Source of the DNA: Bacilli bacterium
GTDB lineage: Bacteria > Bacillota_I > Bacilli_A > RFN20 > DUOF01
Assembly (NCBI GenBank): GCA_017517765.1
Contig: JAFWYE010000006.1
Location: 58,665-122,664, forward strand
Direction of reading: 5' to 3'
Length of the DNA: 64,000 nucleotides
The notes below the pieces were generated by a model. It saw only the letters and a list, made by a program, of their open reading frames with translations, was not told the origin of the DNA and made no database searches. Positions 38,702 through 59,106 of the stretch are shown here, in pieces (within the stretch, counting starts at the first letter, position 1; every line of letters starts with the position of its first letter). Made by a program: the position numbers and the translations under genes.

Positions 38702-38704
38702 CAA

Positions 38705-38780
38705 TAAAAACAGGAACTATGATTCCTGTTTTTTTGTACTAATTTTTAAATAAAAAACCTCTATTTCAAGAGGTTTTTAT
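38705..38780. terminator. Two intrinsic terminators between convergent genes
   Basis: AAAAACAGGAA..TTCCTGTTTTT and AAAAACCTCT..AGAGGTTTTT hairpins. Confidence 0.8.
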
Positions 38781-38785
38781 TCACA

Positions 38786-40315
38786 TTAATCATAAAGTTT
38801 TTCTAACTTCAATGTCATTATTGTTATCTTTGCATTATTTTCAGCATTCTCTAAAGCTTCCTCTAAGGCCCTTTCAGCAGAACTTAATTGAGTTAATGAA
38901 GTTGCCTTTATAACTTCGATTTGAGCCTTTTGTTCACTAGTTAATTTTTCATCAATTGTATTTTTTAATTCATTTGCAACACTCATAAGATTATCTCTTA
39001 TTGTTTTTATTTCATTTAGTGACAATATAGTATCAGCATTATCTACAAAAGTTTTAAGTATAGAAACTAAATTATTATATGCTTCTAAGCGTTGGCTTAT
39101 AATAGAAGCTTCTGCTTTAGTATCATCACTTGCGTTTAATATTTCATATGCGGATTCAAGAGAGTCAATTGAAAATGTAGTTTTATTAAAGATACTTTCA
39201 ATTTGAGATAAATAAGCATTTCTAGCAACCTTTATAGAATTATTAGCTTCTATCTCTGCTTCATCCAAAATAGTATCTATTTCAGTCTTAACATTAGATA
39301 AATCTGTACTAGAATTTTGTTTTATGTAAGTATCTAAATATTTCTCTACACTATTTATAGTTATCTTACCAAGTGAATCTTTTAATACATCTTCACTAGA
39401 AAGATTCAATGTTGTTTTTATACTATCTATTTGCGTTTGTGATAATTCATAATTTTTAATAAGTGTATTATCTTCAATTGTATTGGCAATTAAATCTAAT
39501 CCTTTAGCACTAGCGTGATATAAAACATACATAGAGCCGATATAGCTTTCTTTAGGATTATTACTCATATTTTGACTAAACCAATACATGTAAGCAATAT
39601 CACCTGCAAATACTTTAGCTTGTTCAAATGTACTGTGAGCAATATCTCTAGCATTTTGGAATTCTTCAGTCATAAATAGTTCTATTTTAGAAATATTTGT
39701 ATTAAGTCTATCAATTAGTTCTGAATCATCTAATTCTATAGCAACTTCTAAACTTGTGCTACTTGTTTCACTAACAGCTAAAGCAAGTTTGAATTTTGAA
39801 ATATTTAAATTTTGAATTGTAGTATTATTAGGATATTTACTCTTAAATTCATCTAGTTCACGATATAGAGAATATCCTCCAGTCAAATCAGTAGTAATTG
39901 ACAATCCTAAATTTTGAGCTGTAGTAGTTATAGCAGAAGTAATTGCATTAACCTTCTCTTGAGATATACCCTCACTTACAATTCCTACAATATCATCACT
40001 ACTCAAATATCCCATATTCTTAGCTAGCGTAGTGATCTTTTTAACTGCATCTTCTATTGTGGCTCCAATAACGCCAGTCTCATTATATAAAAGAACTCTA
40101 GCATCATCATTAGTAGCATTAACACTCATTACTTTTCCATATTGGTCTACTATCAAATCTATTGAAGGATTAATATTTAAACTAACATAACCATCTGCCT
40201 CAGCAGCCGGAGGATTTCCTGGAGGATTGCCACCATCAAAACAAGAACAACCTGCTAAATATGCACTACTAGCAACTATTCCTATGCTAAGCAAACCTGT
40301 TATAACCTTTTTCAT
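38786..40315 (-). CDS. Lipoprotein with anti-sigma-I RsgI-like extracellular domain and helical C-terminus
   Basis: YLAGC lipobox; GYVSLNINPSIDLIVD..V..VNATNDDA matches the RsgI periplasmic-domain pattern. Confidence 0.7.
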   Translation of the reverse strand: MKKVITGLLSIGIVASSAYLAGCSCFDGGNPPGNPPAAEADGYVSLNINPSIDLIVDQYGKVMSVNATNDDARVLLYNETGVIGATIEDAVKKITTLAKNMGYLSSDDIVGIVSEGISQEKVNAITSAITTTAQNLGLSITTDLTGGYSLYRELDEFKSKYPNNTTIQNLNISKFKLALAVSETSSTSLEVAIELDDSELIDRLNTNISKIELFMTEEFQNARDIAHSTFEQAKVFAGDIAYMYWFSQNMSNNPKESYIGSMYVLYHASAKGLDLIANTIEDNTLIKNYELSQTQIDSIKTTLNLSSEDVLKDSLGKITINSVEKYLDTYIKQNSSTDLSNVKTEIDTILDEAEIEANNSIKVARNAYLSQIESIFNKTTFSIDSLESAYEILNASDDTKAEASIISQRLEAYNNLVSILKTFVDNADTILSLNEIKTIRDNLMSVANELKNTIDEKLTSEQKAQIEVIKATSLTQLSSAERALEEALENAENNAKITIMTLKLEKLYD

Positions 40316-40414
40316 ATCTTCACTCTCCTTAATAAGATTTTACAAAAAAAAGTCATTATCTCAAACTCATTAATTAAAAAACTTTAATTAATGCATAATA
40401 GACTGTATGAATAT

Positions 40415-40486
40415 AAAAAAGCCAAGAGTTATTTTTTCTTGGCTATAACAAATTTAATTACATTCCAAAGTTGATATTATTCCCAA
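40415..40486 (-). repeat. Displaced copy 3 of cotD-like 3' end (..NIGNNINFGM*) plus terminator
   Basis: ccaagagttatttt.tcttggctataacaaatttaattacattccaaag is near-identical to 42430-42483 and homologous to 55452-55520. Confidence 0.9.
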
Positions 40487-40507
40487 TGTTTTCTTTAACA
40501 TTATATT

Positions 40508-41932
40508 TTAAAATCCACTTGCTTTTAAAACTTCTAATAATGTCTTCTTTTTAGAATAAGGTTCTTTATCATCTATATGCAAAATACCCCAAGTCCCATC
40601 TTTTAAATCGTAAACAATAAATTGAGCATCTGCAATATCAAATAATGGAATCAATTTCATACTTACAACATCAATACCATATTCATTATTAAAATGTTTA
40701 ACAGAATCGAAATCAAGCTGTCTTAAAAATTTAGATGTAGACTTATAAAATACTGACTCTTCAGATAAATTGGATATAAACTTTGAAATCAAGCTATTAT
40801 CATTTAGTTTTGTATTATACATCAATTCTATTTCTTGAACATTTTTGCTTGGTAAAGCATTTGGTTTAAACATCTCTTCTATCTCATTCTTGAGATTCTT
40901 ATGACTGTAAGAAGAATCTTCACAACTTTGTTTTTCTTTATTATTTAATAACACATATTCAGCTCTTACTTCTGCATAATCACACATCAAATCAAAAAAT
41001 GACATGTACTCTTTTGAAAAGTTCTCATAACCGATTTGCTCAAAATTATTTTTTGAATCACACAAATATGTATCTATATATGATGATGGTTCATGAAATT
41101 CAGATTTAATTTTGTTTAACAAATCTAAAGAGAAAACACCACTTGTTAATGTTTTAATTTTTTCAATCACAAAATTCGGAACAGTGTTGTAAAATCTTTC
41201 ACAAAACAATTCAAATCCATTTTTAATATATTCATATTTATTCAAAAGTCTAGCAACAATATCTTCCTTTGATGGAAACTGTTGCTCATTAAGTGCATAT
41301 TGTACTTCAACACTTTTGATTTTCCCATTTTCACCATCCAAATTCTTTAGTATGGTAGGAATTTGTTTTAATAATTTATTGACTTCTTTGTAAACTGATT
41401 CATATTTAAACATGAATCGCCAATAATCTTTTTTTGTAATAACCTTTGAATATCTAAATTTTTCCAATTGTTCTAGCTTATTAATGCTATTCAAATTTGC
41501 AACTTTCAAACCTTCGTCTTTCCATCTTCTTAATTCTGTCAAAGCTAAATTTATATTTGCTTTTTCTTCATCAGTAGCACTTTCTAGAGCTTTTATAGTT
41601 AACTTTTCAATTGTATTTAATGATTTAAAAAAATTCGATGTAATCTTATCCCCATCAATTGATTCTTTTTTAGACCACTTTTCCTTCAACATGTCAGCAT
41701 ATGGCTTACCTTTTATTTCTTTTTCTTTCAAAAAATCCAAAAGCACATCTATTTCATTTTCAATCTCATAAACTCTAATAACTGTTCTAAGACATTCTGC
41801 ATTAAAATCATCGTTTTGTAGTTGATAGTTTTCATCGCCAAGTATGCTATATCCAATTAAATGCCTTCCACTAACAACAAATTTATCATAAATATCACTT
41901 GCATTTTTCATATTTCCAGTTATTTCCTCCAA
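40508..41932 (-). CDS. Hypothetical protein with C-terminal SMI1/KNR4 (SUKH)-like domain
   Basis: VQEIELMYNTKL...LIPLFDIADAQFIVYDLKDGTW resembles SUKH; start may be ATG 41911. Confidence 0.55.
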   Translation of the reverse strand: MEEITGNMKNASDIYDKFVVSGRHLIGYSILGDENYQLQNDDFNAECLRTVIRVYEIENEIDVLLDFLKEKEIKGKPYADMLKEKWSKKESIDGDKITSNFFKSLNTIEKLTIKALESATDEEKANINLALTELRRWKDEGLKVANLNSINKLEQLEKFRYSKVITKKDYWRFMFKYESVYKEVNKLLKQIPTILKNLDGENGKIKSVEVQYALNEQQFPSKEDIVARLLNKYEYIKNGFELFCERFYNTVPNFVIEKIKTLTSGVFSLDLLNKIKSEFHEPSSYIDTYLCDSKNNFEQIGYENFSKEYMSFFDLMCDYAEVRAEYVLLNNKEKQSCEDSSYSHKNLKNEIEEMFKPNALPSKNVQEIELMYNTKLNDNSLISKFISNLSEESVFYKSTSKFLRQLDFDSVKHFNNEYGIDVVSMKLIPLFDIADAQFIVYDLKDGTWGILHIDDKEPYSKKKTLLEVLKASGF

Positions 41933-42055
41933 TTAAACTTCATATTAGCATTATTATTATAAGAGAACAATAGTATCACGTAATTTATGAAATCTCTATA
42001 AAAATTTTATTCTTACTACAGAGAAATAGAGCCTGTTAAGATTGTGAAATATTTT

Positions 42056-42358
42056 TACAGTTTAGCGATAACCCTATACCGTTGTCTGATTTATCCCTTT
42101 CTCTTATTGTCTCATCCTTGTACATGGTTTAACCCATTTCGACTGCCACAATAGCAAATACTTGAATTACTAAGTTCTGGGCAGAATCATAATAATTCCT
42201 TTGCGGATCACAATTTGGAACTAATCGCACATGTTACCTTCGCCATATAAACTCGCTTTGACAAGCTTGTTCATATTTCATCATTAACCAATAATTGGTC
42301 CTATACCAACCGGTTCCAAGGATTTTCTATTCACCCGTACTCACTTAGATAAACTACA
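42056..42358 (-). ncRNA. Candidate ~300-nt structured ncRNA
   Basis: No long ORF, 37% GC by hand count over 42061-42360, end-to-end closing helix, many internal hairpins, own promoter. Confidence 0.6.
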
Positions 42359-42364
42359 TATATG

Positions 42365-42392
42365 GTTATATATAAAAAATCAATATTGTCAA
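42365..42392 (-). promoter_or_regulatory. sigma-A promoter for the candidate ncRNA
   Basis: TTGACA (42392-42387)-N16-TATAAC (42370-42365). Confidence 0.7.
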
Positions 42393-42429
42393 TTATCTAA
42401 AATTGATTAATATATGCACCCAGGAAATT

Positions 42430-42541
42430 AAAAACCAAGAGTTATTTTCTCTTGGCTATAACAAATTTAATTACATTCCAAAGCTATTAGTATTACCAGT
42501 ATTTGAATTTCCTTGACTACCTGGGCATTGAGTTTCTTCAT
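42430..42541 (-). repeat. Displaced copy 2 of cotD-like 3' end (..EETQCPGSQGNSNTGNTNSFGM*) plus terminator
   Basis: 22-bp identity cctgggcattgagtttcttcat at 42520-42541 and 55534-55555. Confidence 0.92.
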
Positions 42542-42569
42542 TAGTAAATATACTTAAATCTGTACTCAA
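42471..42569 (-). CDS. Possible 32-aa chimeric peptide MSTDLSIFTNEETQCPGSQGNSNTGNTNSFGM
   Basis: GAGGTG SD, TTG start, in frame with the displaced cotD tail. Confidence 0.35.
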   Translation of the reverse strand: MSTDLSIFTNEETQCPGSQGNSNTGNTNSFGM

Positions 42570-42979
42570 AATAATCACCTCATAAAACATCTACTTAAAT
42601 ATTATCATGTTTTTTTGATATTATAAATGTTTTATAATATCCATTAATTTTTAAAAAGAACTTATTACTGAAATTATTATATAAATTTAAGATATTACAA
42701 AAAGACTATAGTTTTTCCTAACCAAAAATATTTATTATCTCGAACATAGCCAAATCATACAATGTGAAAACCTATCAGATATTACTTTTTTTAATTATCT
42801 ATTATACATCTTTTTATTTGTACCACATTTAACCCTTATTTATGTGCTCGATATACACATTAATAAATTTAAAATATTTTGTTTATAGATTTAAAAATAT
42901 TATACTATTTTTATACAGTTATTTAGTGATATACTAAATTTGATTTATATATATATTTTTAACATTAAGGGGTGGTTTT

Positions 42980-45900
42980 ATGGTTGATTTATCATCATTA
43001 AACGAAGAACAAAAACAATCCGTCCTTACAACTGAAGGATATGTAAGAGTTATTGCATCTCCTGGGAGTGGTAAAACAAGGGCACTTACACATAGATTTG
43101 CTTATCTAGTAGATGATTTAAAAACTGATCCACAAAATATACTTTGTATTACTTATACAAATAAGGCAGCAGATGAGATGAGAGAAAGAATTATAAAATT
43201 GCTAAGTACTACTGAATATGACTTACAAAATATATCTACAATTCATTCATATTGCACTAGATTTTTAAAAAGTTATTTTCAAAAGCACTATGAATACAAT
43301 TATAGTTTTGATATTTTAGACGAAAGCGCTCTTAACAAATCAATTAAAGCAACATATAAAAACTTGGATTTAGAATACAATGCAAAAAAATTAAGTGAGT
43401 TCAAGAAAATTTTAAGCGATTATAAGATAAATAATTTAACATATGTACCTTATGTTCTAGGCATGACAGATAATTTTAATGTCGATGACGAAAGAATTAA
43501 GCGCATCATTGATATTTCAAAAAAAAGAAAAGCTCTATTTTTTGATGATTTAATTTGTGCAGCAATATATTTGTTAGAAAATGATAATGAAACTTTGAAG
43601 TCAGAATCAGAAAGATTTAAATATATCTTAGTAGATGAATTTCAAGATACATCTTTTATTACATATAGTTTAATAAAAATGCTTTCAAATCATAATAAAA
43701 ATCTATTTGTGGTTGGTGATGTTGACCAATCAATATACAGCTTTATACATGCAGAGCCTGATATATTGCTAAATCAATTTACTAATGATTTTAGTAATGC
43801 AAAAACATTGTATATGAACAATAACTATAGGTCAACAGAAGAAATTATTGAAGCAAGTAATGTACTTATTCAAAATAATCTAAATAGACCAGAATCAAAA
43901 AAAGCCGTTTCCGCCACATCAAAAAAAGGAATTAAACCTGTATATTCGTGTGTTTCTAAAGAAATTGAAATAGTGCATGAAGTGGTAAGAATAATCAAGC
44001 ATTTACATGATGATTTATTTCAAGAATATAAAGACATATTTCTAATTTGTAGAAATAACTATGAACCAGCAAAATTAAGAAATTTCTTAGAATCATCTGG
44101 TATTCCTTATAATGATTCAAGATCAATCAATAAAGATACAACTAATGCTCCAGTGGTAGACGAGCTTTTAAGTTGTTTAATGTTCTCAAAAAATTCAAAT
44201 CCATTTGATTTAGCAAAACTTAATTTATATCAAGAGTTAGGAATAAGCGAATCTGTTATAGAAGATGCAATTAACATGAAAATCGATATTGAAGAATACT
44301 TGCAGTCTAATAAAGAACAATATGAATCATTTTTAAATCGAAACTATTCAACAAAGCAAGTAATATTGAATGAAGAATTGTCCGTTATAGAAAAGATTAC
44401 TTCTATTGTAGGTATCCATAATATATTAAGTAGATACGAACTTGAAGAGGCCGGATTTGAATTTGTTTTGATTGAAGGCCAACCACTGTCTGAATTTTTA
44501 TCATATATTAAAAAGCTCGATGATCAAAATATGACACTATGGGAAATCATAGATAGATTAAAATTAGACAATTCATTTAGTTCTGAGAAAAGTTGTAATG
44601 GTGTAAAAATTCTAACAGCTCATGGTTCAAAAGGCTTAGAAGCTAAAAATGTAATTGTGTATGGTAAAGCATTAGGAGAATTTGGTATAGACGAAGAAGC
44701 AAGAAGGCTAGCCTATGTAGCAATAACTAGAGCCGAAGAAAGATTGTTTATGGTTCAACCACAAAGCAGTTGTTTAATAAATGAGATAAAAAGCGTAGCT
44801 CAAAATATAGAAGATTACTTTGAAATTCAGTTAGAAAATGTAGATATTAAAGATAAATATTATAAAGAATTGAATGATGAAAAGAAAAAAGGATTAGATA
44901 TTTTGATGAGTGGTGAAAATGTTTTCTTAACTGGTGAAGCGGGCACAGGAAAAACTTATCTCTTAAATAGATATATTAAATACTTAAATGACTTTGGAAA
45001 AAACATCATTATATGCGCTCCAACTGGAATAGCTGCAAGTAACTATCCTAATGGTAGAACTATTCATAGTGCTTTTGAATTAAAACCATACCCTTCTGTT
45101 ATATACGATGAAACACCTGGATATAAAACCTGTGATGTTTTAATTATTGATGAAATATCAATGTGTAGGCTTGATATGTTTGAATACATGATGAATATGG
45201 TTCTAAATGCTTATAGTAAAGGATATAAAGTTCAAGTAATAGTTTGCGGTGACTTCTTTCAATTGCCTCCTGTAGTGATTGATAATGAAAGGAGCATACT
45301 AAAAGAACTTTTTGAAGGATTTAATGAAGGCTTTGCATTTGAATCTAAAACGTGGAATGAGATGAACTTTAAAGCTATTTGGCTAAAAGAAATATTTAGA
45401 CAAAAAGATAACAAAGATAACTTTGTTGATGCATTAAACTCAATAAGAAGAGGAAAAGATGTAGACAAATATATAAAATTAATAAATGACGGATGTTCTA
45501 AGGAACCTAATAAAGATGCTATTGAGATACATTCTAAAAACGCTGAGGTTTGTAAATATAATAATCAAGGCTTGTCAAAATGTAATGGTGAGGAATATAT
45601 ATATAAGGCAGAAATCTATGGAAATGATCCAATATCCCCTGATTTAAATATAGAAAATGAAATACATCTTAAACCAGGGGCAAGAGTTATGATGACTAGA
45701 AATAGTGGTATTGGAACCAACAGAATAATTACATACAGAAATGGTTCTTGCGGAACCGTTGTGACATGCACTAATGATTATATCGATATTGTCTTAGATG
45801 AAGGAGGTTGTGCTAGAATATCTAAACATAAGTTTCCATGTTATGGCGAATTAAAAATATTTGTCAATTCTGATGGGACAAAAGAAGTGATTCAGGAGGA

Positions 45901-46147
45901 AACAAATACGGTTGTTCACCAATTACCAATTAAACTGGCATATGCTATTACTATACATAAAAGTCAAGGACAAACTTATGAAAAGGTAAATCTTAATCCT
46001 GACGGATGGGAGAATGGACAATTATATGTTGCTTTATCTAGGATAAAAAGTTTATCCGGTTTATATTTGTATAAGCCTATTGAAGCAAAAGTTATAAAAA
46101 CTTCTCAATCAGTAATTGACTTTTATAATAATTTAGAAACAGAATAA
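42980..46147 (+). CDS. Fusion of UvrD/PcrA-like (SF1A) and Pif1-like (SF1B) helicases
   Basis: Two complete motif sets: ASPGSGKT/DEFQD/GDVDQSIY/HGSKGLE/YVAITRA and GEAGTGKT/DEISM/GDFFQLPPV/TIHKSQGQT/YVALSR. Confidence 0.92.
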   Translation: MVDLSSLNEEQKQSVLTTEGYVRVIASPGSGKTRALTHRFAYLVDDLKTDPQNILCITYTNKAADEMRERIIKLLSTTEYDLQNISTIHSYCTRFLKSYFQKHYEYNYSFDILDESALNKSIKATYKNLDLEYNAKKLSEFKKILSDYKINNLTYVPYVLGMTDNFNVDDERIKRIIDISKKRKALFFDDLICAAIYLLENDNETLKSESERFKYILVDEFQDTSFITYSLIKMLSNHNKNLFVVGDVDQSIYSFIHAEPDILLNQFTNDFSNAKTLYMNNNYRSTEEIIEASNVLIQNNLNRPESKKAVSATSKKGIKPVYSCVSKEIEIVHEVVRIIKHLHDDLFQEYKDIFLICRNNYEPAKLRNFLESSGIPYNDSRSINKDTTNAPVVDELLSCLMFSKNSNPFDLAKLNLYQELGISESVIEDAINMKIDIEEYLQSNKEQYESFLNRNYSTKQVILNEELSVIEKITSIVGIHNILSRYELEEAGFEFVLIEGQPLSEFLSYIKKLDDQNMTLWEIIDRLKLDNSFSSEKSCNGVKILTAHGSKGLEAKNVIVYGKALGEFGIDEEARRLAYVAITRAEERLFMVQPQSSCLINEIKSVAQNIEDYFEIQLENVDIKDKYYKELNDEKKKGLDILMSGENVFLTGEAGTGKTYLLNRYIKYLNDFGKNIIICAPTGIAASNYPNGRTIHSAFELKPYPSVIYDETPGYKTCDVLIIDEISMCRLDMFEYMMNMVLNAYSKGYKVQVIVCGDFFQLPPVVIDNERSILKELFEGFNEGFAFESKTWNEMNFKAIWLKEIFRQKDNKDNFVDALNSIRRGKDVDKYIKLINDGCSKEPNKDAIEIHSKNAEVCKYNNQGLSKCNGEEYIYKAEIYGNDPISPDLNIENEIHLKPGARVMMTRNSGIGTNRIITYRNGSCGTVVTCTNDYIDIVLDEGGCARISKHKFPCYGELKIFVNSDGTKEVIQEETNTVVHQLPIKLAYAITIHKSQGQTYEKVNLNPDGWENGQLYVALSRIKSLSGLYLYKPIEAKVIKTSQSVIDFYNNLETE

Positions 46148-46173
46148 ACTTAAAAACCTAGTGAAATTTATCA

Positions 46174-47202
46174 TTAGGTTTTTTTAATATTAATTAGTGA
46201 TGATTTCATTACTCTTACAATATCATTAATCATAATCTCATTAATTTCAACTTTTTTCACTATACTTCTAGCCATTGCTCTATCCAATATTTCTATTGAT
46301 ATATCAGGGTTAGATGTATTTGTAATATCCTTTGATTCATTAAGAATGTAATGCAAGATATTTTTATTTAATTTTCTATCAGAAAAATCATCTAATATTT
46401 TAATCACGGTATTATCGCTCACTTCGCTTATAAATATAGGTGATAGTCTTCTAGTAAGTGCTGGATCATTTTTAATTGTATTATTAAACTCATTTGGCGT
46501 TGTTGCGCCAATGATAGTAATCTCTCCTGAGGAAAGGAAAGGTTTCAAAATATTTCCAGCACTCAATGCTCCTTCTGCTGCTCCTGCATCATATATAGTA
46601 TGAATTTCATCAATAAAAATAATTACTTTTTTTGATTTGCTTTTTTTATTAAATTCAATAATACTTATAATTGCATTATATAGTTTTCCTTCGAATTCAC
46701 CTCTATATTTAGTTCCAGCAAGACATGCGGTCATATTAAGCTCTAGAATAATATATTTATCATATATTTCCTTTGCTAATTGTTCTATAATTGCAGTTTT
46801 ACCACATCCAGCATTACCAATTAATATAGAATTTTTCATTCTTTTCTTATGCAAACTTTCAATTAATAAGTCTATCTCATCCCTTCTATCAATAAGATTG
46901 ACATTTCTTGATAGTATTGAAAAAATTGCATTATCCTTTAATATTTTTTCTATTTCAATAGAATCTATAGTATCATTTTTATCTTTTACACTCATGTATC
47001 TTCCAACTATTTTAGGTAAAGAAGGGGGATTAGTATGTAATCTTTTTGGTTCATATTCTATTTTCACTACTTTAGCAGGTCCATCTTTATCACTAAGTGA
47101 TACTAAGTCTCCTTCTTTTATTGTTTCATCCTCACACAAATATAGATATTCTCTCTTTCCTTTATATCGAACAACGTGTGCATAGATATAATTTTCTTTC
47201 AT
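46174..47202 (-). CDS. Single-domain ClpA/B NBD1-like AAA+ ATPase with small N-terminal beta domain
   Basis: GNAGCGKT, AGTKYRGEFE, IFIDEIH, GATT, DPALTRR. Confidence 0.88.
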   Translation of the reverse strand: MKENYIYAHVVRYKGKREYLYLCEDETIKEGDLVSLSDKDGPAKVVKIEYEPKRLHTNPPSLPKIVGRYMSVKDKNDTIDSIEIEKILKDNAIFSILSRNVNLIDRRDEIDLLIESLHKKRMKNSILIGNAGCGKTAIIEQLAKEIYDKYIILELNMTACLAGTKYRGEFEGKLYNAIISIIEFNKKSKSKKVIIFIDEIHTIYDAGAAEGALSAGNILKPFLSSGEITIIGATTPNEFNNTIKNDPALTRRLSPIFISEVSDNTVIKILDDFSDRKLNKNILHYILNESKDITNTSNPDISIEILDRAMARSIVKKVEINEIMINDIVRVMKSSLINIKKT

Positions 47203-47288
47203 CTTTATTCCTCCTTTATTTTTATTCGCTAACTATTTCTTTTTTATCAATTGTATTTATTTATGCTTTATTGATATTTTTTTCTTTT

Positions 47289-47729
47289 CTATACTTGTTT
47301 TGTATTATTATCGTATAAGACACTATCTTTTATTAGCTGCCCATTTTCAAAATACAAAATATAACTCATTTCATAGAATTCAGGGCTAGAACATATAAAT
47401 GCATAATTACCGCCAAAATAATTCTTTCCAATTAGTAAACTACCAGTATAATTTATTCCTTGATTAATTTCATATTTATTATCCTTTAACTCCACACCAT
47501 ATATTTTGAGCGAATTATCTATCATACCATAGACATTAATTCTATTTAATATTAATTTTTTTTGGTTTAATTTTAGATCTACTGTAAATCCTCTATAGCA
47601 TGCAGTAGAATTACTTTTTGGATAAAAATTTAATTTTTTAATATCCAATATACCCTTTTCATCACTTATTTCTAGAATATTCCAGGTCTCATTTTTAAAC
47701 TCTATTTTATCTGGTATTTGCATTGTCAT
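47289..47729 (-). CDS. Hypothetical protein (MTxQIPD...STACYRG type)
   Basis: Coupled ORF in operon; YTGSLLIG and LYFENG motifs; no function assigned. Confidence 0.7.
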   Translation of the reverse strand: MTMQIPDKIEFKNETWNILEISDEKGILDIKKLNFYPKSNSTACYRGFTVDLKLNQKKLILNRINVYGMIDNSLKIYGVELKDNKYEINQGINYTGSLLIGKNYFGGNYAFICSSPEFYEMSYILYFENGQLIKDSVLYDNNTKQV

Positions 47730-48007
47730 CAGTCTTCACCTCTAAACTTAAGACCTAAATCATGAACTTTATCTATCAATTCTTGTACTGTTTTTTTGCC
47801 TGCATTTCTAATAGCAAATAAATCTGGTATTGATTTAGAAATAAGTTCATATATTGTTATTATATTTGCCCTTTTAAGGCAATTCTCAGCTCTTATCGAT
47901 AGCATAATTATCTCTGTTACTTCTGTATTTTTTAATCTAGATATACTTGTTGGTTCCTCTAATGTTGTTGTGAATATACTTTCACTTAAAATTTTTTTTA
48001 TTGTCAT
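47729..48007 (-). CDS. Stand-alone RNA polymerase alpha C-terminal domain protein
   Basis: LSIRAENCLKRANI.TI.ELI..S..DL..IRNAGKKT matches alpha-CTD; GGAGG SD before ATG 48007. Confidence 0.85.
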   Translation of the reverse strand: MTIKKILSESIFTTTLEEPTSISRLKNTEVTEIIMLSIRAENCLKRANIITIYELISKSIPDLFAIRNAGKKTVQELIDKVHDLGLKFRGED

Positions 48008-48225
48008 TTTAATAATTCCTCCCATTTTTCTTCAAATTCATCTATTTCTATAATTCCACATGACATGCATGATAATAACTCATTCAATTTATTATATTTT
48101 TCAACTACATTTTTTGGAGCAGTTTCATTAAACACTATATTTCCAAATTCATTTTCATTATACCACTCTTTATGGTCATATACTTCCTTTAGAAATGCAT
48201 CATATCTTTCATCTCTTATCATCAT
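48004..48225 (-). CDS. Small hypothetical protein
   Basis: Coupled ORF, GAGGTG SD. Confidence 0.6.
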   Translation of the reverse strand: MMIRDERYDAFLKEVYDHKEWYNENEFGNIVFNETAPKNVVEKYNKLNELLSCMSCGIIEIDEFEEKWEELLK

Positions 48226-48226
48226 T

Positions 48227-48643
48227 TTACATCACCTCTTTTAATTGTACTAAATATTGCAATCTTTCAAAGAATAGCCACATTAAACGGATATTATCTG
48301 AATCATCAATTGAAGCATGCCCATCTTCCATCATAAACGAATTTGCATATTCATTGCCTGCAACTTCTAGAATATCATTCAAACAGGTTTTAATTATTTT
48401 CAGGCATTCTTCTATGTCTAGTTTTATTTTCTCTTTTGTAATATTTTTGTTTTTTTCTTTATATAATTCTAAGCACTCATAACAAGGTAACTCTCCTGAA
48501 TCATATCCGTTAATAGCACCTTCTAAATCAATACAATATTCTATAAATTTATATATATTCTCTACTTGATTTAGTTTATTAAATATTAAATCTTCCTTTT
48601 TTATTTTAATAATGATCTCGTTTTCATTTTTACTTACTTTCAT
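48227..48643 (-). CDS. Hypothetical protein
   Basis: Operonic ORF with SD. Confidence 0.7.
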   Translation of the reverse strand: MKVSKNENEIIIKIKKEDLIFNKLNQVENIYKFIEYCIDLEGAINGYDSGELPCYECLELYKEKNKNITKEKIKLDIEECLKIIKTCLNDILEVAGNEYANSFMMEDGHASIDDSDNIRLMWLFFERLQYLVQLKEVM

Positions 48644-48661
48644 ATTCCTTTACCTCTTTCC

Positions 48662-49384
48662 TTACGCTATTACATCTTCATTAAATGTTTTAAATAAATT
48701 ATTTTCATCATATAGACTTCCATGAGCCTTAACAATTCTTTTTGCATTCCTTAATCCCTTTAAAGCAAATACATCACAATCAATTTTTAATAACTCACAT
48801 TGCTTTTGAACTTCATCTACTACATATTCAAATTTTTCAAACGTTTTATCTTTTTCAAGTTCACCTAATAGATCTCTTATCATTCCAAACTTATTAGTTT
48901 TTTCTAAATCTTCATGCCAGATTAATTCTTGTAAAAGTCTATTAGTTCCAAATAATTCTTTTTCACTCATTGTCATAACACCTTCATATACAAATCCAAA
49001 TATCCTATTTAGAATTACATGCTTATAACAATCTATGATATCATCAATATCATTGCTCCAGTACCATCCCCCGATTGAAGCAATAAATGCACTTTCATAG
49101 TTCCAAATAAATATTGTTTCTTCCCCTATGCAATGATTATTTGTGGTAATATGCTCAATTACCTCTTTAAAATCATGTTTTTCTTCATAAGTATCAAACA
49201 CATCATCATAATTTTTAAAAACCCTGAACTTTATTCCATCTTCATTAAGGCCATTAGTTGACTTATTACCACTATACTCTTTAACAATCTCATCAACCTC
49301 ACTAGTGTTATTTAGTCTATACAAATTGTATTTACTAGATTCACTAGATTCATTTTCTACTACTAACATTATTCTTTCATTCAT
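48662..49384 (-). CDS. Hypothetical protein; C-terminal half similar to 51870..52244
   Basis: AGGAGG SD; shared TI..G.W.W and VK..G..Y..KTFN.D patterns. Confidence 0.75.
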   Translation of the reverse strand: MNERIMLVVENESSESSKYNLYRLNNTSEVDEIVKEYSGNKSTNGLNEDGIKFRVFKNYDDVFDTYEEKHDFKEVIEHITTNNHCIGEETIFIWNYESAFIASIGGWYWSNDIDDIIDCYKHVILNRIFGFVYEGVMTMSEKELFGTNRLLQELIWHEDLEKTNKFGMIRDLLGELEKDKTFEKFEYVVDEVQKQCELLKIDCDVFALKGLRNAKRIVKAHGSLYDENNLFKTFNEDVIA

Positions 49385-49411
49385 TTTATTTCCTCCTTAT
49401 ATAGAATAATT

Positions 49412-49523
49412 TATAAGCAAGCAGCAAGTAGTAAAGAAAAAGAAATTAGGTTTATCAAAAGGAGTAAATATTACTTGCTGCTCCTTACGCTTACACTATA
49501 AAACAAAAGATAACTTTTTCCAA
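49412..49523 (-). promoter_or_regulatory. Promoter plus hairpin leader, copy A
   Basis: TTGGAA-N17-TATAGT, TAAGCGTAA, 11-bp stem (49420-49430/49472-49482) enclosing CTCCTTTTG. Confidence 0.7.
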
Positions 49524-49625
49524 AACCATAACTAATAGCAAATATTTTAATCTTAACTATATATTATATATAATATATAGTAAGATTAACTGTATAAAAA
49601 TATTATAAAAAAATGCTTGATCCAC

Positions 49626-50099
49626 TCAAGCATAATCTTTTTCTGTCAAATAATAGGCGACATTTACATAATTATTATTAATTTTATCATCAGCATATGG
49701 AATATAGCCACAGTAAAAATATCCTATTAATCCTACACTACCAAATCGTATCAATTCACTATAAGGTTTATAACCAATATATTCTAAGTGATTTGGCATT
49801 CGACTAAACTCATCTTTCCTTTCTAATTCTTGTTGTTCTAATTCCTTGTTTACAAAATCATCTAAATTCGTTCCAAAATCAGCATTCATTATATACAACC
49901 TACTTATTAATTCCTCATCACTAATAACATTACACTTATGCATCAATAAAAGCGGTCTAATAATCCAATTATAACTAACATGAGCTCCAATCAATTTATC
50001 GTATCCCATCTCTACTAATTTTAAAAAAAATGCATTTTCTTTAATCTCTTTTAATAACTCCATTTTATCTGAAGATTCAATACATACAGGTTTATTCAC
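49626..50099 (-). CDS. Hypothetical protein
   Basis: GGAGGTG SD, GTG start abutting the upstream stop. Confidence 0.7.
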   Translation of the reverse strand: MNKPVCIESSDKMELLKEIKENAFFLKLVEMGYDKLIGAHVSYNWIIRPLLLMHKCNVISDEELISRLYIMNADFGTNLDDFVNKELEQQELERKDEFSRMPNHLEYIGYKPYSELIRFGSVGLIGYFYCGYIPYADDKINNNYVNVAYYLTEKDYA

Positions 50100-50912
50100 T
50101 TACTTCACCTCCAAATGTCTATAAAATTGGACATACCCATCATGGTTATAACTACCAATATACTCATTATGCTTCTCTAAATACCACTTAACATCAGCCT
50201 TTTTAATCATACTAAGATATTTACCGATATTTTCAAACTTATCAGAATATTGACCACCAGTTCTTTTTAAATATTCTTCCTCAACCATCAAAAACATAAG
50301 TTTAATCATATTACTATACTTATAGTTATTTATTGAATATAAAAGATACTCTGTATCCACAATAAATTCATAGTAAGGATATTTATTATAATCATCCCCA
50401 TATCCTCCAATCTTTGTCAGTATATTCTCCTTTATTTCTTTAATTGCAGATTTAATATTTTCATCCTTACCCATATACTCTTGAAATAAAGTATCTCTAA
50501 GATTTGAATTTTCATCATAGCATTTTTTTATATATGAATTAGAACTATCTAATAATCCCTCATCTACTAAATACTTTATTTTTATTAAATGAAGTGTAGT
50601 ATTTGTTACTCTATGTGAATTTACCTCTTTAAGATATTTAATTAAAGCAAGAGTCTTATCTTTAGACTTGGTAACAAACTTTGAGGCATAACCACAATAC
50701 TCATCTAAATCAAACTTTTTATGTTTAGCCGAAGGCATTAAAAAAAAGCAATTGTATCCTCTTTCATCAAACAACTCATTTACATCATTTAATAAGTCTA
50801 TATCTTCAGGATTTAATCCATATAAATCTACAAAATACAAAATAACCTCTTCCTCACTAAAGTACGTATTTTCTAATCTTATCATGATTTTTCTTAATTC
50901 TTCTTTATTCAC
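50100..50912 (-). CDS. Hypothetical protein, paralog of 50905..51888
   Basis: Shared AKH, SK..T..LI.Y..E and N.IK..FL.....YL patterns. Confidence 0.75.
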   Translation of the reverse strand: MNKEELRKIMIRLENTYFSEEEVILYFVDLYGLNPEDIDLLNDVNELFDERGYNCFFLMPSAKHKKFDLDEYCGYASKFVTKSKDKTLALIKYLKEVNSHRVTNTTLHLIKIKYLVDEGLLDSSNSYIKKCYDENSNLRDTLFQEYMGKDENIKSAIKEIKENILTKIGGYGDDYNKYPYYEFIVDTEYLLYSINNYKYSNMIKLMFLMVEEEYLKRTGGQYSDKFENIGKYLSMIKKADVKWYLEKHNEYIGSYNHDGYVQFYRHLEVK

Positions 50913-51888
50913 TTACTATCACCTCTTTGAAAATGACACTAGCAAGTCCTACATAACCACTACAAAACACTTGTAAATCTTTTAAATTATCTTTATAAAA
51001 AGCCATTAAATCCTCAACCATATCTTGATCTAAAGATTTATATAAACTCATAATCATACTTCTAAGTTTACCCTTTTCTATATCATATTCATTATCACTT
51101 AAATAATATCTTTGTAAAATCAAAAAGTTAATCTTAATAGAATTAGCAATCTTTTTATCAAATGGAAGAAGTAACTCTTCCATCTTATTTACAAATATTG
51201 CAATGGGACTACCATCATCTACATCGACATTTAAATCAAATACTTCTATTAATATCTTATATACATAATTCAAAATATTTTCAGAATCTGTATCTCCACC
51301 AGGTTCATTATATTGTAAATATGCATCTTTCCATAAATCATATATTGTTCCTATCTTTACTTCTTCCCTGCGGTCAATGTAGTCAATAATATCCCCATAT
51401 TGATCTATATGAGGATACAACTCTAATAGTTTTCTAATCCTTATATCATCAAGAGAATAATAAGTAAATGCTTTATCCTTGATCTCATTAACATAATAAA
51501 TCAACTCTTTTGTATACGCTTTTGAAGTCATCGCCCTTTTAACTAAATAAGAATAATATTTTTTATTAAATCTCATCTCTAAATTATAAGTAAAACTTCC
51601 ACTTTCAGGATTATAATTATCAAAGTCTATATAACGATGGCGAATATCATTTATATGTTTAGCCCTACCTAAACTCATAAAATCTTCATCCCAATAAAAT
51701 CCAAAAATATCATATAATTCTTTTAACTCTGATATAGAAATCATAAAATCCCTTAACATAGAGTGAATAATAGCTTTAATTTCTTTTTCATCTAAATTAT
51801 GTTCATTACAATCATTAACTAATATTTCCATCCATTTTTTCATAATTTCACCTACTTCCATTTTATAATTTATTCTTCTTTTAAACAA
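50905..51888 (-). CDS. Hypothetical protein, paralog of 50100..50912
   Basis: Long operonic ORF; same shared patterns; start uncertain. Confidence 0.75.
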   Translation of the reverse strand: MFKRRINYKMEVGEIMKKWMEILVNDCNEHNLDEKEIKAIIHSMLRDFMISISELKELYDIFGFYWDEDFMSLGRAKHINDIRHRYIDFDNYNPESGSFTYNLEMRFNKKYYSYLVKRAMTSKAYTKELIYYVNEIKDKAFTYYSLDDIRIRKLLELYPHIDQYGDIIDYIDRREEVKIGTIYDLWKDAYLQYNEPGGDTDSENILNYVYKILIEVFDLNVDVDDGSPIAIFVNKMEELLLPFDKKIANSIKINFLILQRYYLSDNEYDIEKGKLRSMIMSLYKSLDQDMVEDLMAFYKDNLKDLQVFCSGYVGLASVIFKEVIVSE

Positions 51889-52244
51889 TCTCCATTAAAT
51901 GTTTTATTATAATCAAAATAGATTGTTCCTTTATTTTTCTTAACTCTTTCTATTGCCTCTTCTATATTAGAATAAACATAATATCTATATTTGATGTTAC
52001 ATTCTTTATATAGTAGATTTACACTATATATCCATCTTTCTAAATCAATAATAGATATAATAGAATTAATTTTACTCTTCATATACTCTTTAGTAATATC
52101 ACCGATATCCTCTTCTATCTCTTTTAATAAAATACTTAATAACGCCTTAAAACTACTACCCCATAACCAATACCCCTTATACATGTTATGTTCCCTTTTT
52201 TTATATACTAATATTGTCCTATTAGTAATCAATATATTATTCAT
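51870..52244 (-). CDS. Hypothetical protein, similar to the C-terminal half of 48662..49384
   Basis: First gene after leader copy B. Confidence 0.7.
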   Translation of the reverse strand: MNNILITNRTILVYKKREHNMYKGYWLWGSSFKALLSILLKEIEEDIGDITKEYMKSKINSIISIIDLERWIYSVNLLYKECNIKYRYYVYSNIEEAIERVKKNKGTIYFDYNKTFNGDCLKEE

Positions 52245-52267
52245 ATTCTCACATCCTATCTATATAA

Positions 52268-52355
52268 TATAAAGAGTGGCATATTATGATAAACAAAAGG
52301 AGGAGAACCACTCTTTACGCTTAAAACTATATAGAATATATAAAAAGAACTCCAA
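52268..52355 (-). promoter_or_regulatory. Promoter plus hairpin leader, copy B
   Basis: TTGGAG-N18-TATAGT, TAAGCGTAA, stem TAAAGAGTGG/CCACTCTTTA enclosing CTCCTCCTTTTG. Confidence 0.7.
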
Positions 52356-52573
52356 TGCAGGAGTTTTTATAAAAAAATAATATTTAATTATATATAATAA
52401 ATATTAACAATTTACATAATTTAGATACTTATTGTACAAAATCATGATGTTCTTTGTTTTGTTAATGGAATATTGTCTTTACCACATTTTTGAACGATCA
52501 TCAAAGCATATTACTTTCATCTACATTTACCTTTATTTCTTAACCTAGACCAATTTAGCATAATTTAAAGGCG

Positions 52574-55435
52574 TCACTTTTTATTTGATTCTAAAATTGA
52601 CTTAACAAAGTCTGAAGTTTTGTTTTTTGTGTGCAGTATATAAATGCTTTCTTTTGCTCTTGTCAAAGCCACATAAAATAGTTTTTCTTCATCTTCAATT
52701 GCATCCATATAATTCTGATCAAATAACGTAAACAGTTCATTATTAACATTATAAACAGGAAAAGACTTTTCATTTACATTCAATAAAATTACAACATCTG
52801 CTTCTTCTCCTTTAGAAGCATGAACCGTAGAAATTTTTATTTTGTTCATATCTGGCCCATACTTTGAGCAATTCTTTACAATTTTCTTTAACATTCTCTC
52901 AAATTCAAGCAAATCAATCCCTAAAATGCTATTACTTCTATTTAAAATCATAATATTAGACTTCGGATTTTTAGAAATAATATCATAACATATTCTAAAG
53001 CATCTTGATAAATCCCACTTTTCCATATTTTCATATGTAAGTCTACCTATATAATTATCTACTTTATCTTCACTATTCATAAAAATACTATCTGTGTCTA
53101 AAACGTTAACTTCTCCCTCATACATTGAAACAGAAACAGCTGGTTTACCAGAATATTTATGATCAATCATGAACTTATTAGCTGTTGTAACAATATTTTT
53201 AAAACTTCTATAATTATTTGTAACGCTAAATTCTTTTGCATTCTCATAATTAGATAAAAATCCATTAAAATACTTTGTATTTGATCCTGCAAATCTGTTT
53301 ATAGCCTGCCAATCATCTCCGACAGCAAATATTTTGATATTTGAATTTATTTCTAAAATAGCACTAATCAAATTATCAAACAAACGAGAAAAGTCTTGAT
53401 ATTCATCAATAAGTACCCAATTCAACTCTTTTATAACATGATCATAATTACCATTTCTAACTAAAACTATAGCATTATGCATAAGTTCATTAAAATCTAA
53501 TCTACAATACTTAAATTCTTCTAAAGAAGGACTTTTAATTTCGGCATGCAATTCCTTTATATATTCAAGATATACTTTATATCCCAAATTATAGAAACTT
53601 TTTACTTTAGGGTCTAATATGGCATCAAATTGATTTGTTAGTGATGAAACATCATCATAATAATATTGCTGTAATTTATTTATAAATTGCTCCATTAATA
53701 TTGTAAAGCCATCAATCCCTTTTTCCCATACTTTTCTTTGTAAAACTTCTTCTGGCAGTTTTTGATCATATACACCATATCCTTTTAGCTTTTCTTCAAT
53801 TATCGCTTCTGCCTTTTCTCTACTGATATTTTCAAATTCTTTGGCATTTGTTTCTATCAATCCTTTTATACAATTGAAAGTATCATTATACTTTGTATGA
53901 ACTAAATGCTTCATATTTGGAAAATTCCAAAATTGTTTCTTCCAATTCATATTGTTAATATAGTAATTATAATTGCCAACGCTTGATTCAAAATCAAAAA
54001 TTTCCTTTAGGGTTTCCTTTCCATTAACACCCCAGTTTTCCCATACAAAATTATATTTTTTTAAATAGAAATCCGGTTTGGTTTCTTTCTTCCCATCGAC
54101 TAATCTCATAAACTCCTTGTAATCATTTCTGTCTATTAAACAATTCCATCTAGGAGCGATTTTGTAAGGAAAAAACGATTTTTCATACACATAGTCTATA
54201 CCATGTTCAAATAAATAATCAGCAATTATCTTTTCAGAATAAGATTTCACAGTTTCTCCATTCAAAGTTTTATAACTAGAATTTCTTTTAAATTTGTAGT
54301 AGTCCTCTAGACTAGTAAAGGTTTTTCTATCAATATAATTTAATGAGGAATAAAAAAAGTCATATACTTCTTCCCTAAATAAAGTATCCTTCTTTATCAT
54401 CTCATTTAAGATTATTTTCAAAAATTTAGTCTTATTTTCTAATATTTTATTATCATTTTTCGGATTAACTATGTCATGTGCCAAAGAGTGAAACGTTCTG
54501 GCAAATTTATCATGCAAATACTTTGGTTCACCATCTATAAGACACTTTTCACTTATTCTTTTATTAATTTCATTGGCCGCCTCTTTATTAAAACAAAAAG
54601 CCATTATATTTTTTTGATTCATTTTTTGAACTTCTATCTCATATATAATCTTGCCTATTATAGTTCGAGTTTTGCCACTTCCTGCTCTTGCTGTGACAAT
54701 AGAATTGTCATTAGATACAATGGCAGCACATTGTTGCTCATCAAAAACCAATTTTTCATTTTCAAAAAGAATGTGTTCGTTTACAAACATTTTATAATTA
54801 TTTATTTTTCCTTTTATATCTTCTACCAGTTTTGCTTGTGCATTTAAAAACTTATCGTCAAAAATCAAATTTCCACTATTAATTAATTTATCAAGCACCC
54901 ATACTCTAGGCTCACTTTGTCCGTGCTTAAATAAATAATTATTGGTAGAAGAATACTTTAATGAGCAAAACTTTACCCCTTGTTCAGCATGGATATCACA
55001 TATAATTACATCAAAAATATTATTATTATTTTCTACGAATTTTGCTTTCATTCCTTCATGTATATAAGTATCATCAATTTTAAATTTATTATTTACATAA
55101 TTCGTTTTACCATTTTTAATCATGCCTTGTTTTATTACAAATTTGTGTTTCTTCCAATTATTGACATCTATTTGATGCAGTTCAATAAATTTTTTAATAG
55201 TTTCAATTATTTTATCGCCATATTTGTAATACTTACTCCCATAAATACCGCATTCTTGCAATTCCAACCTATCCATAGGTAAATTTTCTACAAGTTTTAC
55301 CAGTTCACCATCATTAAAAATATAATAATATGGCTTATAGCTTGTTTTCATAAGTTCTTCTCTCATACACTTCAGTATGTCTTTTAGCTCATCATATAAA
55401 AATATATACTCACTATCCATATTATCACCACTCAC
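52574..55435 (-). CDS. Helicase IV (HelD)-like UvrD helicase with N-terminal HRDC and inserted nuclease-like domain
   Basis: HRDC (PYYYIFND..L..L...P..KYGDKII), ARAGSGKT, KSYSEKIIADYL..PDFYL..WENWG, DEYQD, VHASKGEE, YVALTRA. Confidence 0.85.
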   Translation of the reverse strand: MSGDNMDSEYIFLYDELKDILKCMREELMKTSYKPYYYIFNDGELVKLVENLPMDRLELQECGIYGSKYYKYGDKIIETIKKFIELHQIDVNNWKKHKFVIKQGMIKNGKTNYVNNKFKIDDTYIHEGMKAKFVENNNNIFDVIICDIHAEQGVKFCSLKYSSTNNYLFKHGQSEPRVWVLDKLINSGNLIFDDKFLNAQAKLVEDIKGKINNYKMFVNEHILFENEKLVFDEQQCAAIVSNDNSIVTARAGSGKTRTIIGKIIYEIEVQKMNQKNIMAFCFNKEAANEINKRISEKCLIDGEPKYLHDKFARTFHSLAHDIVNPKNDNKILENKTKFLKIILNEMIKKDTLFREEVYDFFYSSLNYIDRKTFTSLEDYYKFKRNSSYKTLNGETVKSYSEKIIADYLFEHGIDYVYEKSFFPYKIAPRWNCLIDRNDYKEFMRLVDGKKETKPDFYLKKYNFVWENWGVNGKETLKEIFDFESSVGNYNYYINNMNWKKQFWNFPNMKHLVHTKYNDTFNCIKGLIETNAKEFENISREKAEAIIEEKLKGYGVYDQKLPEEVLQRKVWEKGIDGFTILMEQFINKLQQYYYDDVSSLTNQFDAILDPKVKSFYNLGYKVYLEYIKELHAEIKSPSLEEFKYCRLDFNELMHNAIVLVRNGNYDHVIKELNWVLIDEYQDFSRLFDNLISAILEINSNIKIFAVGDDWQAINRFAGSNTKYFNGFLSNYENAKEFSVTNNYRSFKNIVTTANKFMIDHKYSGKPAVSVSMYEGEVNVLDTDSIFMNSEDKVDNYIGRLTYENMEKWDLSRCFRICYDIISKNPKSNIMILNRSNSILGIDLLEFERMLKKIVKNCSKYGPDMNKIKISTVHASKGEEADVVILLNVNEKSFPVYNVNNELFTLFDQNYMDAIEDEEKLFYVALTRAKESIYILHTKNKTSDFVKSILESNKK

Positions 55436-55451
55436 ATTATACTCTACTATT

Positions 55452-55483
55452 TAAAAAACCAGGAGTTTATTTTCCTGGTTTTA
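55452..55483 (-). terminator. Terminator of the cotD-like gene (repeat copy 1)
   Basis: AAAACCAGGA-GTTTATTT-TCCTGGTTTT. Confidence 0.8.
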
Positions 55484-55493
55484 TACAATTTAA

Positions 55494-55751
55494 TTACATT
55501 CCAAAGTTGTTATTGTTCCCATTATTTGCTTGTCCTGGGCATTGAGTTTCTTCATCTGTAGTATATTGATAATAGTATCTATTATATGGAACGTATCTAT
55601 GAATTACATGAGTATGACTTGGACAAATAACTGGCTGTTCGATAGGATGGCACTTTACTATATTACATACTTTTGTAGGCATTACAATAGGTTCTAATGG
55701 TTGACATGGAGTTGGATTATTACATCCACATGTTCTATTAGTATTATTCAT
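55494..55751 (-). CDS. CotD-like inner spore coat protein
   Basis: PIVMPTKVC...PVICPSHTHVIH.Y Cys/His/Pro pattern; AAAGGGGAG SD; sigma-K-like AC-N16-CATAAATT upstream. Confidence 0.72.
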   Translation of the reverse strand: MNNTNRTCGCNNPTPCQPLEPIVMPTKVCNIVKCHPIEQPVICPSHTHVIHRYVPYNRYYYQYTTDEETQCPGQANNGNNNNFGM

Positions 55752-55844
55752 TATATTCTCCCCTTTCACTTTAATTTATGCATATATATCTAAAGTGTAT
55801 AGGCTCAAATAAAAACCCCAGGATTTCTGGGGTATATTTTTGTA

Positions 55845-56300
55845 CTAAGCTACTAAAAGCATTGTTCCTGCTATATAAGTTACTACAAATATAGTTAAAT
55901 ATAAGTAAGTTAGTAAAATTAATCTAGCATAGTTTCTAAATGTAGGATCAGATTTTGTTTTTTCTCCAAAAGCCCAAATAAATAACATAATAAGCGATAC
56001 AAGAGGGATAGCTAAAACTATAGTTATTCCAAACCATCCTAAAATACTTCTACCACCATCATCAGATTTCTTATCAGAAAAATATGCAATAAGCAAACAT
56101 ATTATCGCAGGTAATACAGCAGCAATACCTAATACTATTAGCATGTTTTCAGAAGCCATTAACTGAGCATATAATTGATCTATTATAGTGCTTTCAGGAA
56201 CATCCGCCATTCCTGCTGCTAACGCCTTACTAGAAAAGGCAAATAAATAAACAAATGCAAAACCTGCAAATCCTATAATTCTAGACATTATCTTTTTCAT
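55845..56300 (-). CDS. Hypothetical membrane protein
   Basis: Signal peptide plus TMs; IPLVSLIMLFIWAFG..NYAR. Confidence 0.7.
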   Translation of the reverse strand: MKKIMSRIIGFAGFAFVYLFAFSSKALAAGMADVPESTIIDQLYAQLMASENMLIVLGIAAVLPAIICLLIAYFSDKKSDDGGRSILGWFGITIVLAIPLVSLIMLFIWAFGEKTKSDPTFRNYARLILLTYLYLTIFVVTYIAGTMLLVA

Positions 56301-56409
56301 ATACTACACCTCTATTTCTAAACTCACTATAGCACAATAAATGTTAAAAATTCAATGCTGATAGCCAATTAAACCAACAATTGTGATAAGTTAATAAAAA
56401 AGCAATGGA

Positions 56410-56952: not shown

Positions 56953-56971
56953 GCCTAGTTAATAAAATATA

Positions 56972-58223: not shown

Positions 58224-58246
58224 AATATCACCAATCTTATTATACT

Positions 58247-58809: not shown

Positions 58810-58908
58810 TTTAATATATGCAAAATGAAATTAATTGAATACACAATAACTGATTATTAACCAAATAATATGATAATGAATAAACTATATTGATAGGAGG
58901 TGTAATAG

Positions 58909-59085: not shown

Positions 59086-59106
59086 AAAAGGGAGATAACT
59101 CCCTTT

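Follow-up and report, generated by a model that had tools for sequence, protein, structure and literature searches.

The 3' end of a gene resembling the spore coat gene cotD in an uncultured Bacilli bacterium (GenBank assembly GCA_017517765.1; genome G000) is best read as a recombination hotspot, at which two integrase-less islands comparable to cis-mobilizable elements (CIMEs) would have accreted in tandem, each arrival replacing the C-terminal tail of the coat-like protein; we regard this reading as moderately probable. The gene lies in the stretch of 64,000 nt analyzed here (the window; contig JAFWYE010000006.1, positions 58,665 to 122,664 of the forward strand), and its 3' end, together with the stop codon and the terminator, is present three times in the window, always in the same orientation. 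Copies 1 and 2 bound the helicase-rich island A of 12.9 kb (42542-55451), and copies 2 and 3 bound island B of 1.9 kb (40491-42429).

All three copies lie on the minus strand. Copy 1 (55452-55555) is the end of the intact open reading frame (ORF) and comprises a 22-bp core, tail 1, the stop codon (55494-55496) and a terminator hairpin (about 55459-55478); it is read as the gene-adjacent junction, with a tail and terminator that arrived with island A. Copy 2 (42430-42541), a sequence repeat with the core at 42520-42541, tail 2 (CPGSQGNSNTGNTNSFGM), a stop codon at 42471-42473 and a terminator at 42433-42457, is read as what used to be the end of the gene, now displaced. It ends in FTNEETQCPGSQGNSNTGNTNSFGM and the stop, has in-frame stops upstream, and shows a faint likeness that extends to about 42550. 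Copy 3 (40415-40490), likewise a sequence repeat, consists of the last 10 codons (NIGNNINFGM, stop at 40458-40460) and a terminator (about 40421-40443), is without the 22-bp core and passes directly into the left flank, which places the joining or later trimming of island B outside the core.

A sequence-only reading of this DNA had described these three copies and an exact 22-bp core common to copies 1 and 2, and both descriptions were confirmed. The core occurs exactly at 42520-42541 and 55534-55555, and these remain the only two matches in the window even when up to three mismatches are allowed, a number reached in 0 of 100 shuffles. All three copies also agree exactly over a 20-mer that spans the stop codon (three matches reached in 0 of 100 shuffles). 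A repeat search returned one direct three-copy family of 75 nt, with 88% and 76% identity to the copy-3 reference and spacings of 2013 and 13023 nt; blastn of the whole genome found only these three places (E 1.9e-177, 1.5e-16 and 1.2e-14), the next best of 41 matches having an E of 0.13. Copies 2 and 3 share an identical stretch of 34 nt, and the longest identity blocks (22 nt; 52 of 54 nt) sit where a crossover would be expected. The three differing tails and the compensatory change in the terminator stem (ccaGg/cCtgg versus ccaAg/cTtgg) are likewise present as that reading had it, and the copy-2 hairpin was scored as terminator-like by a terminator scan. An Xer/dif-like or integron-like role of the hairpin was considered and dropped, since its structure, with a T-run behind the stem-loop, is that of an ordinary terminator and IntI is absent. 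Neither the repeats nor the islands gave a tRNA or a known RNA in Rfam and tRNA scans.

The intact gene (55494-55751, minus strand) encodes 85 aa from an ATG, or 91 aa from an upstream GTG at 55769, and its product consists of a Cys/Pro-rich body and an Asn/Gly-rich tail 1 (CPGQANNGNNNNFGM). The match to Pfam CotD (PF11122, inner spore coat protein D) is 16.7 bits against a gathering cut-off of 22 (E 0.011); sub-threshold matches to the same family were found in 7 of 11 aligned relatives (best E 0.0013), and no NCBIfam match was found for the protein. The term cotD-like is therefore used here for a resemblance, which appears real but lies below threshold, and not for family membership. The window's own protein (P0036) has an identical copy on 15 contigs. 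The gene lies in a sporulation neighborhood: a ylbJ-like sporulation gene (56972-57898) is located just upstream, and the window also includes sigE/sigG-type sigma factors, SpoIIGA, SpoIIIE/FtsK and GerA.

The site is found without its islands in a related strain. Public runs were searched with region 51000-60000, and 21 were listed, four of which were compared with 38000-57999 as contigs. The share of sequence words is at least 97% in 11 of these runs (from 4 studies; 10 may be source samples), 65% in one and 27-32% in eight bovine or sheep gut runs, with one further run listed only for its shared study; of the low-share runs, X13 and X16-X20 contribute no evidence here. In the sheep gut run X15 (record 18), a single unbranched contig of 1874 nt (depth 6.2) carries 55534-56862 (19 differences), then 42435-42519 (1 difference) and then 39961-40421 (6 differences), contiguously. 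In this strain, which is about 1.4% diverged, both islands and copy 3 are precisely absent and the flank is joined at 40421; the live gene ends in tail 2, which in the window survives only as a dead fragment. This is a precise empty site in a conspecific strain. The sequence-only reading had named the lack of any empty site in relatives as a finding that would count against it, and the X15 strain has one, together with the tail of copy 2.

The left flank includes a gene for a 509-aa lipoprotein-like protein with an RsgI_M domain (38786-40315, minus strand), is core DNA present also in the empty-site strain, and over 38000-40421 has about 98-99% identity to contigs of X15 and of a second run, X14. 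Run X14 yielded fragments only, namely flank pieces, a 513-nt contig ending at 40421 and two short low-depth pieces of island A, and is weighed on neither side. In run X4, which may be the source sample, the position of island A is bridged by one contig of 14353 nt, which runs without a single difference from 42454 to 56806 and so takes in copy 2, island A, copy 1 and the gene. Island B is covered in X4, but contigs there end at the 34 nt that copies 2 and 3 have exactly in common; the placement of this island therefore rests on the original assembly. Within 40441-42479, the island-B contigs in X4 have depths of 35-44 versus 21-32 in their neighbors, depth not being copy number.

Several lines of evidence from protein alleles point to the transfer of tails between bodies. 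The comparison included 31 homologs at E <= 1e-10, plus members of two clusters, and 44 tail-bearing sequences were examined. P0036, with tail 1, and P0042, with tail CPGSQGNSNTGNTNNFGM, which is one residue off tail 2 of copy 2, have identical bodies. Five full-length bodies that share 79-96% identity with each other (P0036, P0037, P0038, P0046 and P0050) end in tail 1 letter for letter, and the P0050 body is also found with SQG-type tails (P0051 and P0052); a second common tail is shared by P0005 and P0017, the bodies of which are 69% alike. Only three tails recur among the 44 sequences and the rest come close to being unique; an exact match between tails on diverged bodies therefore means transfer. 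In each tail-sharing pair, the switch point lies within the conserved core codons. As tail 1 crosses such diverged lineages, a single crossover of a circle is favored over two homologous crossovers.

A second case is provided by G010, a genome of the same family and another genus, the CotD of which is 70% identical. There, the full gene is followed by a gene for a 239-aa membrane protein and then by a partial copy that starts at (E)QPVIC and has a different tail and a terminator, the two copies having 95% identity over 104 nt. Past the partial copy, the DNA is collinear with what immediately follows cotD in all four congeners, which show the empty arrangement, and the inserted gene is present in 1 of 11 family genomes. 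This collinearity and the rarity of the insert indicate that here, too, the original end of the gene is the copy beyond the insert, and that the near tail arrived with the insert. Two protein-level matches occur only in G010 among 59 cotD-bearing genomes (401 sampled in the order). A metagenome scan with a single protein gave 371 pattern matches, none of them a relative, and an alignment-based scan gave 11 loci (10 clear relatives, 40-60% identity), with a downstream duplicate in 0 of the 11.

Some alleles break off at recurrent points. P0041 and P0044, two different bodies, end in YTTDEE followed by CVN and the stop, a break inside the core, as if an insert at the core supplied no replacement tail. 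In P0034 and P0035, two more diverged bodies, HPIEQP is followed by a common foreign peptide (LVQFNDLFE and onward) up to the stop; the break point after IEQP is the start of the partial copy in G010, and these two sequences may reflect a gene-splitting insert at a second site in cotD. In P0026, a singleton, 48 unrelated residues are joined to QPVIC and onward through tail 1, and its N-terminus resembles a 215-aa chromosomal ORF of G000. P0026 had no match in phages and viral contigs, and a search with the N-terminal 48 residues returned only P0026 itself; it is treated as a single chimeric ORF and given little weight. Overall, the X15 empty site, the P0036 and P0042 alleles, the other cargo in G010 and the occurrence of tail 1 on different bodies support the idea, raised in the sequence-only reading, of a cotD-targeting hotspot with tail swap.

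We infer an order of events, crossover points and an enzyme as follows. Foreign DNA would have been added at the cotD-like 3' end at least twice. The incoming piece would carry its own gene end, including the core or part of it, a tail, a stop and a terminator, and a single crossover between a circle bearing this gene-end segment and the chromosomal gene would leave the gene whole with the tail of the newcomer, while the old gene end would come to lie beyond the insert as a dead remnant. Island A would have joined inside the 22-bp core and brought tail 1, leaving the core, tail 2 and terminator as copy 2; island B would have joined, or later been trimmed, in the stop/terminator stretch that is nearly identical in copies 2 and 3. 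The islands, neither of which encodes a recombinase, are best taken as CIME-like remnants that would have been inserted by a site-specific recombinase acting in trans or since lost, and could then spread among close strains via ordinary homologous exchange. Such spread of the array by homologous recombination is very likely in any case. A site-specific recombinase, in trans or since lost, is somewhat favored because tail 1 crosses between lineages with only about 80% likeness, the core always holds the switch point, and different alleles break at identical points.

The search for such an enzyme covered the 52 ORFs of at least 130 aa in the window and the smaller island ORFs, and Pfam detected no recombinase or transposase domain among them, consistent with the sequence-only reading, which had seen no recombinase in the window. 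The only tyrosine or serine recombinase matches in the genome (PF00589 and PF00239; C5:51992, C1:278681, C3:50370 and C3:51703) lie outside the window, either on other contigs or at a distance on C1, and the two tyrosine recombinase matches, also elsewhere in the genome, are open frames of 281 and 298 aa. At C3:49302-52212, a pair of neighboring ORFs for large serine recombinases, of 530 and 442 aa, lies beside a prophage-like run of same-strand ORFs that extends to about 72000; no cotD-like sequence was found near this pair.

Several observations weigh against a hotspot served by a recombinase. The 22-bp core has 0 matches in viral contigs. A 19-mer across the stop occurs at 9 viral and 42 genome loci, of which only the one in G010 is a cotD locus; the others were rejected as sites, being chance matches in AT-rich DNA. 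The sequence-only reading had proposed a search for elements carrying the core next to an integrase, and no integrase-bearing element with the core or the cotD gene end was found in the viral and genome collections. Neither island has visible remnants of integration or transfer genes by Pfam, and the G+C content of the islands equals that of their surroundings. Partial copies begin at three different points, namely at the core, 10 codons before the stop and at EQP in G010, so they cannot all be the work of one enzyme with a single crossover point. The duplicate is present in 1 of 62 cotD loci of other genomes and metagenomes (G010, by self-comparison; downstream DNA in these loci ranges from 127 nt to 18.8 kb). 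The empty site is known from one low-depth contig of one run, and may be either the original state or the outcome of a deletion between the repeats; both imply recombination at the repeats.

A serious rival, which we consider unlikely but well short of negligible, dispenses with a site-specific enzyme: circles bearing a cotD end would be inserted by RecA-dependent, Campbell-type recombination, or DNA of relatives would enter by homology-facilitated illegitimate recombination with its anchor in the conserved gene body, and arrays would spread by transformation. The three different starting points of the partial copies, the location of the longest identity blocks at the expected crossover sites, the 95% identity of the G010 copies over 104 nt, the host-like composition of the islands and the failure to find an integrase or remnant of one are all consistent with this explanation, as are competence-type genes. 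A gene with a CoiA N-terminal domain is located at 60801-61631 in the window, and near cotD of G010 (L030 6218-8792) there are ORFs resembling ComEC and ComEA, judged by their translations; based on these genes, the lineage may be naturally transformable. However, the 22-bp core at best just reaches the length usually needed for RecA exchange. Also, tail 1 is present on bodies that are only 79-81% alike, always with the switch in the core, and linear DNA would need a second crossover in the diverged flanks. In addition, identical break points after TDEE and after IEQP in different bodies are unexpected of illegitimate joins.

A more far-reaching version of the hotspot reading is doubtful. In that version, cotD of this gut Bacilli lineage would serve as a hub where DNA docks at three or more break points (between IEQP and V, between TDEE and TQCPG in the core, and in the stop/terminator stretch), and small recombinase-less cassettes would be exchanged there by an unrecognized trans-acting system. 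Tail rewriting would couple cargo gain to coat diversification, possibly under selection, and inserts at the in-gene site would interrupt cotD until sporulation, when, like skin, they would be excised.

It is very improbable that the partial copies are silent cassettes or decayed tandem paralogs for gene conversion of the tail, with islands that merely landed between them. The hypervariability of tails among close homologs and the three tail versions in one locus would fit, but the empty-site strain is without any spare copy, no spare copy is found in 61 of the 62 other cotD loci, direct repeats delete rather than switch, and copy 3 is too short for donating a whole tail. Least credible is an assembly artifact in which the repeats led the assembler to stitch unrelated pieces behind the gene: the X4 contigs do break at the 34-nt repeat, leaving island B not independently bridged, and its depths (an unreliable measure) are raised, but one contig with 0 differences bridges copy 2 through the gene, the 11 runs with at least 97% of the 51000-60000 words (10 may be source samples) include the junction of island A and the gene, and the displaced tail 2 matches a real allele.

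The cargo differs between the two islands. Island A encodes a 953-aa HRDC and UvrD/PcrA-like helicase (52574-55435, minus strand), nine small ORFs (47289-52244, minus strand), a 342-aa AAA ATPase (46174-47202, minus strand) and a 1055-aa UvrD and PIF1 fusion helicase (42980-46147, plus strand). Eight of the nine small ORFs are without a family; the exception is a 98-aa protein resembling the C-terminal domain of the RNA polymerase alpha subunit (47729-48025, minus strand), and lax Pfam runs on the small island ORFs gave no credible match. PADLOC returned only generic GajB/UvrD and AAA matches and no complete defense system, and PHROGs returned helicase and ATPase families only. No close DNA match for either island was found in 400 other genomes of the order, only 65-74% identity at conserved helicase and ATPase parts. 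Sub-threshold Rfam matches to 'n00280', a Clostridioides difficile small RNA inside a helicase gene, were observed in both island helicase genes (44670-44765, plus strand; 52624-52720, minus strand), and most likely reflect a conserved helicase coding motif.

Island B includes a 474-aa ORF without a family (40508-41932, minus strand), which has only three homologs among 5.8 billion proteins and a SUKH-like C-terminus that is a lead only, and about 500 nt of non-coding DNA. Within the latter, 42046-42396 duplicates, at 85-90% identity, two blocks of about 226 nt and about 110 nt that occur once elsewhere, at C1:315904-317085 (L058 2405-3586). At that location, the blocks flank a gene for a 79-aa HTH_3 protein and about 560 nt of ORF-poor DNA, and this middle part (about 848 nt) is absent from the island B version. 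The repeated non-coding stretch matches no Rfam family, and its folding z values of -1.76 and +0.22 are not telling.

The genome of 1.55 Mb (10 contigs, about 27% G+C) belongs to a small-genome, spore-forming, uncultured gut Bacilli lineage, and the window is core chromosome that holds the dcw cluster. In a genome-wide self-comparison for similar footprints, repeats lay mostly within very long genes. A 53-nt terminator-like direct repeat (C4:3879-3930 and 6903-6955; 94% identity, 3 kb apart) flanks three ORFs and could be another small cassette footprint.

These results pin a strain-variable insertion site to the base in an uncultured gut spore-former. Island uptake at this site would change the C-terminal tail of a coat-like protein, and in the population the same tail is present on different bodies. 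The cotD site can be used as a strain-typing marker and is a place to seek new accessory or defense-type cargo, island A being without an assigned system. Also, the recurrent break points in cotD hint at recombinases yet to be found.

Integration, decay to a CIME that keeps its attachment sites, and further accretion at a gene-end attachment site are described as a known course (PMC5704250). CIMEs and the islands at cotD both lack integration and transfer genes and have a precise empty site in relatives: by Pfam, no such genes are present within the islands, and empty sites are represented by X15, P0042 and the 4 of 4 congeners of G010. In Streptococcus thermophilus, the ICESt1/ICESt3 family reportedly undergoes tandem accretion at the 3' end of fda, from work of Pavlovic in 2004 and Bellanger in 2011. 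Unlike in CIMEs, no cognate integrative and conjugative element (ICE), integrative and mobilizable element (IME) or integrase is known for the cotD site, and the islands show no decayed genes for conjugation or integration. An origin from an ICE or IME is not indicated by remnants in the islands, by an autonomous element with the core or gene end in the viral and genome collections, or by close island DNA in 400 other genomes of the order. Moreover, the cotD-site repeats are long and diverged and carry different tails, so the host protein changes, and the target is a sporulation-type gene.

Sporulation genes are themselves hosts of intervening elements, including skin in sigK, SPbeta in spsM and gin in gerE (PMC5595907, PMC3442830). 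As in those systems, a mobile insert would target a sporulation-type gene, and the truncated CotD forms (P0034, P0035, P0041 and P0044), which are present only as proteins from other samples and not in the window, look split by inserts. In contrast, the window gene is not split but is completed by insert-borne codons as a whole 85-aa ORF, so no developmental excision would be needed. An element-borne large serine recombinase of the SpoIVCA type was absent from both islands in the Pfam search.

In staphylococci, rlmH (orfX) carries at its 3' end arrays of staphylococcal cassette chromosome (SCC) and pseudo-SCC elements; these are tandem cassettes with end-of-gene repeats, and some of them need Ccr in trans. 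The cotD islands are likewise tandem cassettes delimited by a repeat of the last bases of a protein gene, and some SCC are also without recombinase genes; however, SCC repeats leave the host protein unchanged, and the only adjacent pair of large serine recombinase genes in G000 lies on another contig by phage-like genes. An integron cassette array is not indicated, an IntI-type integrase with attI being absent beside the array.

Genomic islands in tandem at the 3' ends of tRNA and transfer-messenger RNA genes consist of a full gene and same-orientation partial 3' copies, with several integration sub-sites. The footprint at cotD is the same, but the target is protein-coding with a hypervariable tail, and the replaced part is not sequence-identical. 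In one literature search, no title or abstract opening named cotD as an integration target. Elements that dock at a gene 3' end and stack in tandem are already well known; the noteworthy twist at cotD is that a coat-like protein would have its hypervariable tail rewritten with every arrival.

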